Assembly: GCA_040285745.1 (NCBI GenBank)
Contig: JAUFOR010000002.1
Coordinates: forward strand, 1,054,001 to 1,118,000
Direction: 5' to 3'
DNA from: Barthelona sp. PCE
Lineage: Eukaryota
DNA: 64,000 nucleotides
In this document: positions 39,067 to 50,182 of the stretch, one piece after another
Layout of the letters: each line of letters opens with the position of its first letter
Numbering within the stretch: position 1 is the first letter of the stretch
Notes under the pieces: model-generated
Databases searched by the model: none
What the model was told of the DNA's origin: nothing
What the model saw: only the letters and a program-made list of their open reading frames with translations
Position numbers and translations under genes: made by a program

Positions 39067-40015
39067 CTAATCAAAAGCACTTTGCAGTGAACTTTGAACA
39101 CCTTCACATGTTTGTTCTAACAAGTCTAACAGATGACGTTCATTAGTTTCACGTTCAAGTCGTTCTTTGTTGAGCTCTTGTGAAAGATTTTCTGCGAGTT
39201 CCTTGATGGAATCAGTAAGCTTTCTATTACTGTCAATTCTTTGTTCACGTTCAACTTCTAAAGCACTGGCAAGTTTACCAGTTTCTTCATCTAATTTCGC
39301 CAAAATTTGCTTGTGTGAATCCTGACGTGAAGCTTCTTCGTGTTGCAAAGACGTACGGAGTTCCTTAAACTCCATAGAAAGTGTCTCAGTTAATCCCTTA
39401 ATAGCATTTTCACGCTCACTCTTTTCAGTAGTTAACTGATGTTGGATACCTCTAGCTTGGTCCTCAACAGCCTTTGTAAAGCTATCCTTAGATGTAGAAC
39501 GTCTGTTTGCTTCTGCTTCGCGATCAGTCTCAAAAGTATGTTGCAACAATTGCAACTCACGCTCAAGACGTTCCTGAAGGATTTCTCTGCTAAGACGCTC
39601 GTCTGACAGACTCTGTTGAAGCTGGTTGACACCTTCAATTAAAAGCTTGAACTTTTGATCATCCAAAACGCTGTTCTTTGTGAACTTCTCTTGTACATCT
39701 CTAATTTTGTTCTCTAACGTTGTTTTGCGACTCTAAATGTTAGGTTATCGGGTATATAACGCATAAAATGTGTATTACAAATGCAAAAACACGTAATAAA
39801 CACGAGGAAAATCCAAAGTGTTTCAAAATCCAAAACGCAACAAAAATAATTGTTCGTTTGGCATACACAATTGCTCGTAGAGTGAGTGCGGCACTCTGAA
39901 TTACCATTAATATGCGCTATTTTTGAAATACAATGTTTTCTCTTTCGAGACCCGCTTGAAGGCGTGAAAGCTTGCTGGAGAGCTGCTGGATACGTGAGTT
40001 ACCTTCTTCTGTCAT
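39067..40015 (-). CDS. SF-assemblin/beta-giardin family protein, 2 exons (40015-39932, 39732-39067)
   Basis: Spliced N-terminus MTEEGNSRIQQLSSKLSRLQAGLERENI-SRKTTLE. Segmented coiled coil with recurrent E-x-x-x-R (ERLSRE, EKSERE, EEASRQ, EREQR, ERLERE). Confidence 0.8.
39733..39931 (-). other. 199 nt structured spliceosomal intron
   Basis: GTATTT...CCTAACATTTAG, phase 0. An 84 nt exon 1 and a 666 nt exon 2 join in frame. Confidence 0.88.
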
Positions 40016-47974: not shown

Positions 47975-48845
47975 CTACTCTTCAAATAACAGTGTGCAAC
48001 ATGGACTGTTGCAGTTGGATCTACGTCGATAATTATCAACTTGATCGATATCTTGATCAATTCCTTGAAATAAAGGTGTTGAAATAGAACGATCACGAAT
48101 ACGATATGATAAAAAGGGGGAAAACTCTCCCTCACTTGATCCAGTACTTGCTTCAAAACACGGTGACATGTTATCTTCAGACTCAGTCTCTGCTTCAGTG
48201 CACTCAAAATTAAAAGCTAAAGGATGAGTTTCAGTAAGTGAACGTAAACGGCGAGGATGCATGGGGGAATCAATACCATTGGAAAAAGAATTGGAACGTA
48301 ATATGCGATAGCTGCTGTGGTGCTCGCGGTCACAACAGTGAGCAATTTGCTCAAATTCACCATCATCCTGAGTAATATAGCCACCATTGCAATGCTCAGG
48401 GTATAACTCATAGAAACGTCTATATCCTCCCTCAAGAATGCCACAGTGCTCAAATTTTTGGAGACCAAACTCAGAGAATTCTGTACAAGTTCTTCTATCA
48501 AGATCAATAAATGTCTTCAATGTTTTAGGCCCTCTCTTTTGAGAATATTCACAATGAAAGACGAGTAACCACTCACTGTCAATTTCTCCGTTCTCAAAAA
48601 AGTCATGCAGTTCATCTTTCTTCCAGATGTGATGAGCTCCAGCAATATGCCCACCTTCAAACTCGTATGGGTAACGACAGTCAATAATCGCCGTCTTATG
48701 CATGCAGAAGACTTCATGTTCACCATTAAGTACCAAAGCAAGCTAAATGTAAGGAAATTATATTTCAAAAAAATCATACGTCTTCGGGAGAGATTACTCT
48801 GCTTGATTCTGTCAGTGAGCATGAGCTATATGTAATGGGTTCCAT
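47975..48845 (-). CDS. CDC25: Cdc25-type dual-specificity phosphatase, 2 exons (48845-48780, 48742-47975)
   Basis: IIDCRYPYEFEGGHIAGA, active site FHCEYSQKRGP and ILEGGY. Splicing restores RVISPED-LALVLNG. Confidence 0.93.
48743..48779 (-). other. 37 nt spliceosomal intron
   Basis: GTATGA...CCTTACATTTAG, phase 0, joining ATG 48845 in frame. Confidence 0.9.
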
Positions 48846-49571: not shown

Positions 49572-50182
49572 TTACTGCCACATGATGTCTCTGTTACTTT
49601 CAGATACACGCTCATCCATGAACTCCCAATCATATCTTGCATACTGACCAGTAGGAACATTAGTACCTTCTTCAATAGCCTTACGTACCTGAGCACGTGA
49701 CTCTTCATACATCTGCTTTGAAGGACCAATGGGAAGCTCAAACTCTATATCACAATGAGGACAAAAAGCATCTGCTTCTTCATCAAAATCCAAAACATCA
49801 ACTCTGAATGTTTTCTTACAATCTCTGCACACGAGAGCGACCTCGTTGTGAATGTTCATTGAGTGATCTTCTGCACTATCATGACTAAATGTGAATAAAA
49901 AAATTTTTTAAAGTTTGTGAATAAAAAAAAGTATAACACACATGAAGCGCACTACAATATCGTGTACCAAACGCACTAATGATCTGGTTGATAACTGATT
50001 CAACATCATTAATCAAGAGATGAAAAAATGAATGTTCTTCAATGCAGCACCTTAAATTCTTCAATGAATGGACATTGGTCATCACAACTTTATGTATAAA
50101 CATGCCAAAAAATACATGGATACCATTTCTTGCAGCATGGTGTTCTGAGATTAACCTTATTATCTGGGAAGTGATCGCACAT
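49572..50182 (-). CDS. Small CHY zinc-finger protein, 2 exons (50182-50106, 49884-49572)
   Basis: Spliced product MCDHFPDNKVNLRTPCCKKWYPCIFCHDSAEDH...CRDCKKTF...FCPHCD is a complete CHY pattern. Confidence 0.88.
49885..50105 (-). other. 221 nt structured GC-AG spliceosomal intron
   Basis: GCATGT...ATTCACATTTAG, phase 2. Only this donor restores the frame and the CxxCH motif. Confidence 0.82.

Follow-up and report, generated by a model that had tools for sequence, protein, structure and literature searches.

The CHY zinc-finger gene of the anaerobic protist Barthelona sp. PCE, which lies on the (-) strand of the 64,000-nt stretch of DNA analysed here (the window), raises the question of how an intron beginning with GC is recognised when GT sites lie close to it. 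A previous reading of the letters without database searches (the sequence-only reading) had proposed that RNA structure guides the choice of donor, or that the gene is subject to regulated unproductive splicing. The three elements involved, GC-AG introns, decoy donors and end pairing in metamonad introns, have been described before. U2-type GC-AG introns are described as representing ~1% of human introns, as being enriched in alternative splicing and as selectable beside an intact GT (PMC3167603), and the long introns of Giardia, Spironucleus and Trichomonas are described as having stems between their ends that leave spans of ~35-45 nt (PMC6679479). A rarely spliced GC-AG candidate is also listed in Giardia (PMC10711314). 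A literature search combining GC-AG, metamonad and intron found no paper, and a search for work on Barthelona introns, or on GC-AG introns in Giardia or Trichomonas, found no such analysis.

The junction that restores the zinc finger

All features of the gene are given in window coordinates on the (-) strand. Exon 1 (50106..50182) starts with the ATG at 50182 and comprises 77 coding bases, namely 25 codons and the TG of a Cys codon, its end being spelled TGT ATT TTT TG; it matches positions 1-22 of the Pfam zf-CHY model with an E value of 5e-6. Exon 2 (49572..49884) completes the Cys codon with its T and continues with HD...CxxC...CPxC up to the stop. The two exons are separated by a phase-2 GC-AG intron of 221 nt (49885..50105). 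As the sequence-only reading had stated, joining TG|GCATGT at 50105 to ATTCACATTTAG|T at 49885 restores WYPCIFCHD in a product of 129 aa, and when all GT and GC donors were combined with all nearby AG acceptors no other junction gave the CHY motif. Unspliced RNA read from the ATG at 50182 reaches a stop after 30 aa. Against Pfam zf-CHY (PF05495) the 129-aa product scores 46.6 bits for a cut-off of 31.3, and it is the only product above this cut-off, a 126-aa public isoform being without a match. Of 89 homologues, 15 are complete in the N-terminal half; with a profile HMM built from these, the scores were 93 bits for the GC junction, 72 for a GT at 50123, 59 for the 126-aa isoform and 23 for the GT at 50115.

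The product displays the CxH..CC..W..CxxCH..H..CxxC..CPxC layout of the small CHY proteins of eukaryotes (PF05495; Giardia, Yarrowia, Gloeochaete, Syncephalis), and over ~50 exon-2 residues its best homologues share 40-50% identity with it. In word searches, both exon 2 and the full 129 aa matched the organism's own record alone. A metagenome scan for relatives gave two loci among 151 candidates, at 45% over 29 residues, which we read as unrelated zinc ribbons. In nine of the 50 homologues carrying the motif (P0019, P0031, P0036, P0037, P0044, P0049, P0069, P0070 and P0084), Q replaces W-x-D directly before CxxCH. This variant resembles the read-through of a CAG acceptor, and it is possible that it marks an intron located 11 nt upstream of the present position in other eukaryotes.

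In the NCBI records, a protein assigned to Barthelona sp. PCE is identical to exon 2, and the protein cluster has two members from a single locus, KAL0237504.1 (129 aa) and KAL0237503.1 (126 aa). The former (P0109) equals the GC-spliced product in every letter, the only alternative junction yielding the same 129 aa being GG..TA; the GC-AG intron is therefore already implicit in the public annotation. The latter corresponds to an ATG at 50009 and to an alternative GT-AG intron of 57 nt (49885..49941) whose donor, at 49941, reads GTGTGT; the initial 23 residues of this protein are encoded by intron sequence of the 221-nt model. This isoform is devoid of half of the zinc finger and is unsuitable as the protein. 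The gene models of Barthelona sp. PCE are described as derived from RNA-seq hints, GeneMark-ET, AUGUSTUS and PASA (PMC11316075), RNA-seq hints, AUGUSTUS and PASA being mentioned in PMC8516963 as well, and PASA is presented as deriving isoforms from transcript assemblies (PMC2395244). We infer that RNA support stands behind the 129-aa public model.

A GC donor among the predicted introns of the genome

Unlike the human setting of GC-AG introns, the genome of Barthelona sp. PCE is intron-poor, with 93 matches to the acceptor motif CTHACATTTAG against 26 for the reversed control. The input of a census was formed by these loci and by a number of variant acceptors, drawn from the 100 matches at the top of a list of 300. 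Including the window, 114 acceptor matches were considered, 93 of which were kept with a clear donor and frame, while 21 were dropped (donor or frame unclear, probable untranslated-region introns and one duplicate). The boundaries are predictions from motif and frame, two of them checked against public proteins, and the donors were seeded on GTAT[GT], which biases the set towards the consensus. The 93 donors comprised GTATGT (38), GTATGA (23), GTATTT (8), GTATGC (6), GTATAT (4), GTTTGT (4), GTATTC (3), GTATGG (2), GCATGT (2) and three single others. Predicted lengths range from 36 to 265 nt, 37 of the 47 introns below 60 nt spanning 36-46 nt, and in the census introns branch site and acceptor are fused, with a constant spacing between them. 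One of them, a 37-nt intron of the window (GTATGA..CTTACATTTAG, 48743-48779, (-)), interrupts a rhodanese-domain gene that we take to be Cdc25-like. At loci L012, L043 and L076 the acceptor motif and a long downstream frame were present and a frame-compatible donor was absent; the introns at L043 and L076 seem to lie in 5' untranslated regions, and L012 has no clear donor. Duplicated segments that are almost identical and separated by a few kb were also observed, inverted at L089 and direct at L148/L149.

The productive donor GCATGTTTA (50097..50105) agrees with the genome consensus GTATGT everywhere except at +2 and follows the consensus from +3 to +8. With a matrix derived from the 92 other introns of the census it scores 6.3 bits, and 9.9 bits when +2 is ignored, a value that 20 of the 93 donors (itself counted) equal or exceed. 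The locus presents the features of U2-type GC-AG introns: GC at +1/+2, an AG end and a conserved reading frame that is regained on removal. U12-type introns carry an RTATCCTT donor and a TCCTTAAC-type branch site; here the donor is GCATGTTT and the branch TATTCAC, and no U6atac scored over the cut-off. The strength of the donor outside +2 is in line with the description of GC donors as offsetting the C at +2 by a strong match elsewhere (PMC3167603). Two other interpretations of the intron were rejected. As an intron-encoded C/D snoRNA it has GTGATGA but no CTGA, the best Rfam hit being caiA (E 2.1), and it is present in a single genome copy; as two nested introns it lacks an internal acceptor resembling those of the genome.

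A second GCATGT-AG intron, of 49 nt, was found on another contig in a YIPF6-like (Yip1-family) gene (locus L099, G000:C1:1237217-1237265, (-), G000 being the genome). Its spliced product is exactly KAL0239207.1, in which LDEP is spaced as in Yip1-family homologues, its branch site makes 8/8 pairs with U2, and the gene has one public isoform. A genome pattern for short GCATG introns gave three matches against two for the control, the Yip1-family intron being the only one of the three with support. The presence of an identical donor on another contig argues against an assembly error, or an allele, hiding a real GT at 50105, to which we attach hardly any probability. The site does adjoin six consecutive T and GG, and the protein match is blind to GC versus GT since the mRNA would be identical; however, the C sits outside the homopolymer, and the assemblies of the group concerned are described as Illumina-polished (PMC11316075). 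The GC-AG call for 50105-49885 is well supported, and the intron is probably an ordinary member of the U2-type GC-AG class. As a separate observation, CATG follows the junction on both sides, TG|GCATG at 50105 and AG|TCATG at 49884 (-). This duplication resembles a trace of intron gain and could be due to chance.

Acceptor and spliceosomal RNAs

The branch site of the intron is fused to the acceptor in TTATTCACATTTAG (49885..49898), where we place the branch A at 49892. The sequence-only reading had considered it the most degenerate branch site, a view that is contradicted by its pairing: in the U2-branch register that we adopted by inference, TTCAC makes 7/8 pairs with the genome's own U2 against a median of 6. 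It is a rarer spelling and not a weaker site, and occurs in 3 of the 93 introns, most of which had been collected through a CTHAC match. Across the 93, five pairs are made by 14 introns, six by 46, seven by 31 and eight by 2, the other two introns of the window making six each. Two introns in genes that we presume to be alpha-tubulin-like, from their N-terminal residues, share their final 14 bases with the CHY intron.

The U2 snRNA lies at L001:1500-1673 (G000:C1:606049-606221) and, with 51.7 bits, is over the Rfam cut-off. Its branch-binding part is AUGUAGUA, which fits the ACAT of the acceptors, and in model organisms this part is GUGUAGUA; it is possible that U2 and the acceptors have co-varied here. 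No U1 was found by Rfam among the 41 of 153 candidates that were scored, nor by pattern among the 20 inspected of 22 matches, all but one of which overlap frames of at least 200 codons. For U6, the best Rfam hit had an E value of 0.25, and two patterns gave 2 and 18 matches, none convincing. A U6 look-alike at L118 (~1445-1575, (-)), which combines GAATTAGC with a short hairpin and a run of T and shows on-paper complementarity to the U2 5' end, was rejected: it is without Rfam support and sits at the end of an open frame.

Competing donors

Three GT sites could be proposed in place of the GC donor. The most conspicuous is the out-of-frame decoy GTATTTTTT (50107..50115), which lies within the Cys-Ile-Phe codons. 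The sequence-only reading was accurate on its letters: GTATTT begins at 50115, 10 nt upstream of the GC donor, its junction with 49885 gives F-M-I-V-Q-K-I-T-Q followed by TGA (31 aa in total), and the same hexamer is the donor of a predicted 199-nt intron in an SF-assemblin-like gene (Pfam PF06705, 30.4 bits, slightly below the cut-off of 30.6). The decoy scores 8.2 bits against 6.3 for the GC donor, assigned donors ranging from 4.7 to 13.2 with a median of 9.9, and the matrix by itself is thus insufficient for the choice of donor. None of the other 92 introns has, within 30 nt, a GT that scores higher than its assigned donor. This higher score results from the penalty on GC together with the codon content. 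Judged by the codon frequencies of eight long frames in the window, Cys-Ile-Phe would be spelled with GTATTT with a probability of ~0.33, and the site at 50115 looks like a by-product of these codons. Among 770 exon segments of 30 nt, 36 contain a GT scoring above 6.3 bits, and GTAT[GT] sites occur within 30 nt upstream of 6/93 donors and downstream of 6/93. The G at +5, a base that in model organisms is paired to U1 and U6, is found in 74 of the 93 donors, including the GC donor, and is missing from the decoy.

It was on this site that the sequence-only reading had built its model of a regulated competition between GT 50115 and GC 50105, the frameshifted product being decayed. In favour of such a competition are the higher matrix score of the decoy, the use of its hexamer as an assigned donor in 8/93 introns, the early stop and the existence of Upf1 in the genome (domain E 1e-57, in a 988-aa frame), which makes the decay of early-stop products possible. 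The codons nevertheless account for the site, the G at +5 is missing, similar sites flank a few other donors, and the two-member protein cluster contains no isoform fitting 50115, bearing in mind that a 31-aa product might escape annotation. No positive evidence for regulated unproductive splicing at 50115 was obtained, and we regard the model as very improbable. Any link to metal stress would have the zinc-finger nature of the protein as its sole ground.

The two remaining sites are weaker. An in-frame GT, GTATCC (50118..50123), has 0.3 bits and would remove WYPCIF, leaving a product of 123 aa. The GTGTGT donor at 49941 of the public 126-aa isoform has 4.0 bits, below the minimum of 4.7 for the 93 assigned donors, a set that leans to GTAT; with the ATG at 50182, its use would end the reading frame after 30 aa. 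It is 49941, and not 50115, that the public record indicates for any unproductive isoform that may exist.

Folding of the intron

When the splice sites are held open, the dominant predicted element of the intron is an end-to-end closing stem, formed by a 5' arm TAAAGTTGTGA (50082..50092) and a 3' arm TCACAAACTTTA (49909..49920) with pair probabilities of 0.66-1.0, which leaves 13 + 24 unpaired bases outside (36.7 +/- 2.5). The 3' arm overlaps the first copy of TTTTTTTATTCACA, a direct repeat at 49929-49916 and 49903-49890 (-) whose first copy is branch-like, has no AG and precedes the real one by 26 nt. The stem is not significant alone, 6 of 62 mismatched pairs being equally strong and the shuffle fraction being 0.15, and once exon 2 is included in the folded pre-mRNA, it becomes the predicted partner of the 5' arm (p 0.89). 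It is at the level of the genome that end pairing emerges: in 32 introns of at least 90 nt (the predicted introns in L003-L087 and that at 39733-39931 of the window), pairing between an intron's own ends reaches -12.5 kcal/mol against -7.3 for mismatched ends, with 0 of 20000 permutations as low, and the shuffle fraction is at most 0.05 in 12 of the 32. The SF-assemblin-like intron is among the most strongly end-paired (-16.6 kcal/mol, 0/62).

The proposal of a structure-guided choice of donor receives weak support. An end-to-end stem is predicted, albeit not one of the hairpins that had been named, and it would bring the GC donor to an effective ~39 nt from the acceptor and the decoy to 42-44 nt, against 37-38 +/- 5 for long introns; the difference is small, and the 39 nt is a weak feature alone, shuffled introns being similarly short and effective length being no discriminator. 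Local folding opposes the proposal. The GC donor is predicted to be unpaired with a probability of 0.13 against 0.40 for the decoy, being covered by an exon-1 hairpin between CATGCTG and TGGCATG (50101..50139, p 0.84). Only 1 of 400 synonymous recodings buries it as deeply, the figure by energy being 11% of 1000. Burial in a hairpin that some factor might open would suit a regulated competition with 50115, but 11 of the 93 donors are predicted to be more paired than this one. A hairpin ATGTAT/ATACAT masking the decoy was rejected, its probability in the pre-mRNA context being 0.

The intron had also been described as the longest structured insert. It is indeed the longest of the three introns of the window (37, 199 and 221 nt), but it ranks fourth of the 93 after introns of 265, 248 and 233 nt, and it is not structured beyond shuffles: the whole-intron fold gives z = +0.26, with 117 of 200 shuffles folding as well, z = -0.69 when the splice sites are kept open, and its best 45-nt window is equalled by 34% of 300 shuffles. 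Both of the hairpins named can be drawn from the letters. TAATGAT-GTTGA (49977..50011) has a probability of ~0.65, not above shuffles, whereas AGTGCG..TGCGCT has 0.0 for its outer and 0.02-0.08 for its inner pairs.

The closing stem could be given a further role if two donors shared the acceptor at 49885, a distal GC (221 nt, productive) and a proximal GT at 49941 (57 nt, decayed), with the stem as a gate: once formed, it would loop out 49941 and bring the GC into range, and when it is not formed the short intron would win and the mRNA would be decayed. We consider this arrangement unlikely. The locus has two public isoforms against one for the other gene with a GC intron, the gene models are described as RNA-seq-based (PMC11316075) and PASA as adding transcript isoforms (PMC2395244), a length of 57 nt comes near to that of the short introns, the stem would loop out the stretch containing 49941, and Upf1 is present. 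The 126-aa record, with no CHY match and 23 intron-derived residues, may however be a leftover ab initio model, and its GTGTGT donor falls below all 93 donors of a GTAT-leaning set; protein records constitute the support, and use of the junction would not prove regulation.

Discussion

We propose, as the explanation that is probably correct, that the CHY intron is a U2-type GC intron in which positions +3 to +8 compensate for the C at +2, that the stem shortens it, that the decoy is a codon by-product and that the use of 50115 or 49941 is mis-splicing. It resembles U2-type GC-AG introns in its C at +2, its otherwise strong consensus and its AG end. The spliceosome would tolerate the C because +3 to +8 are optimal, G at +5 foremost, the G at -1 helping further. 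The end-to-end stem would fold the 221 nt to the span of 36-46 nt of short introns and loop out the internal GT at 49941. Any use of 50115 or 49941 would then most likely be mis-splicing at a weak donor, giving products with a stop at codon 31-32 that Upf1 could clear. Yeast RPL30 is a case of autoregulatory splicing with decay, and RPS9 reportedly is another; a donor-covering hairpin and early-stop products similar to theirs can be drawn here on paper. A structure-gated switch, in which the end-to-end stem would decide between the weak distal GC donor and either GT 49941 or the decoy at 50115, appears quite improbable to us; if true, it would represent a metamonad 'intron ruler' serving gene regulation.

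At the level of the lineage, the introns of Barthelona sp. PCE are similar to those described for Giardia, Spironucleus and Trichomonas in their fused branch site and acceptor, in their short introns of 36-46 nt and in the end pairing of the long ones, and the donor consensus resembles the VTATGTT of Giardia (PMC6679479). They differ in the acceptor, CTHACATTTAG here with a matching AUGUAGUA in U2 against CTRACACRCAG there, in number, ~100 or more being predicted here against a handful in those organisms, and in the non-standard donor, which is GC here and CT in Giardia, as far as these are described in PMC6679479. The results suggest a lineage that has the intron design of Giardia and Trichomonas at ~100 introns, with a matching U2 and at least two GC donors. 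The CHY gene, with three candidate donors on one acceptor, would make it possible to examine at little cost how a donor is chosen by a reduced spliceosome.
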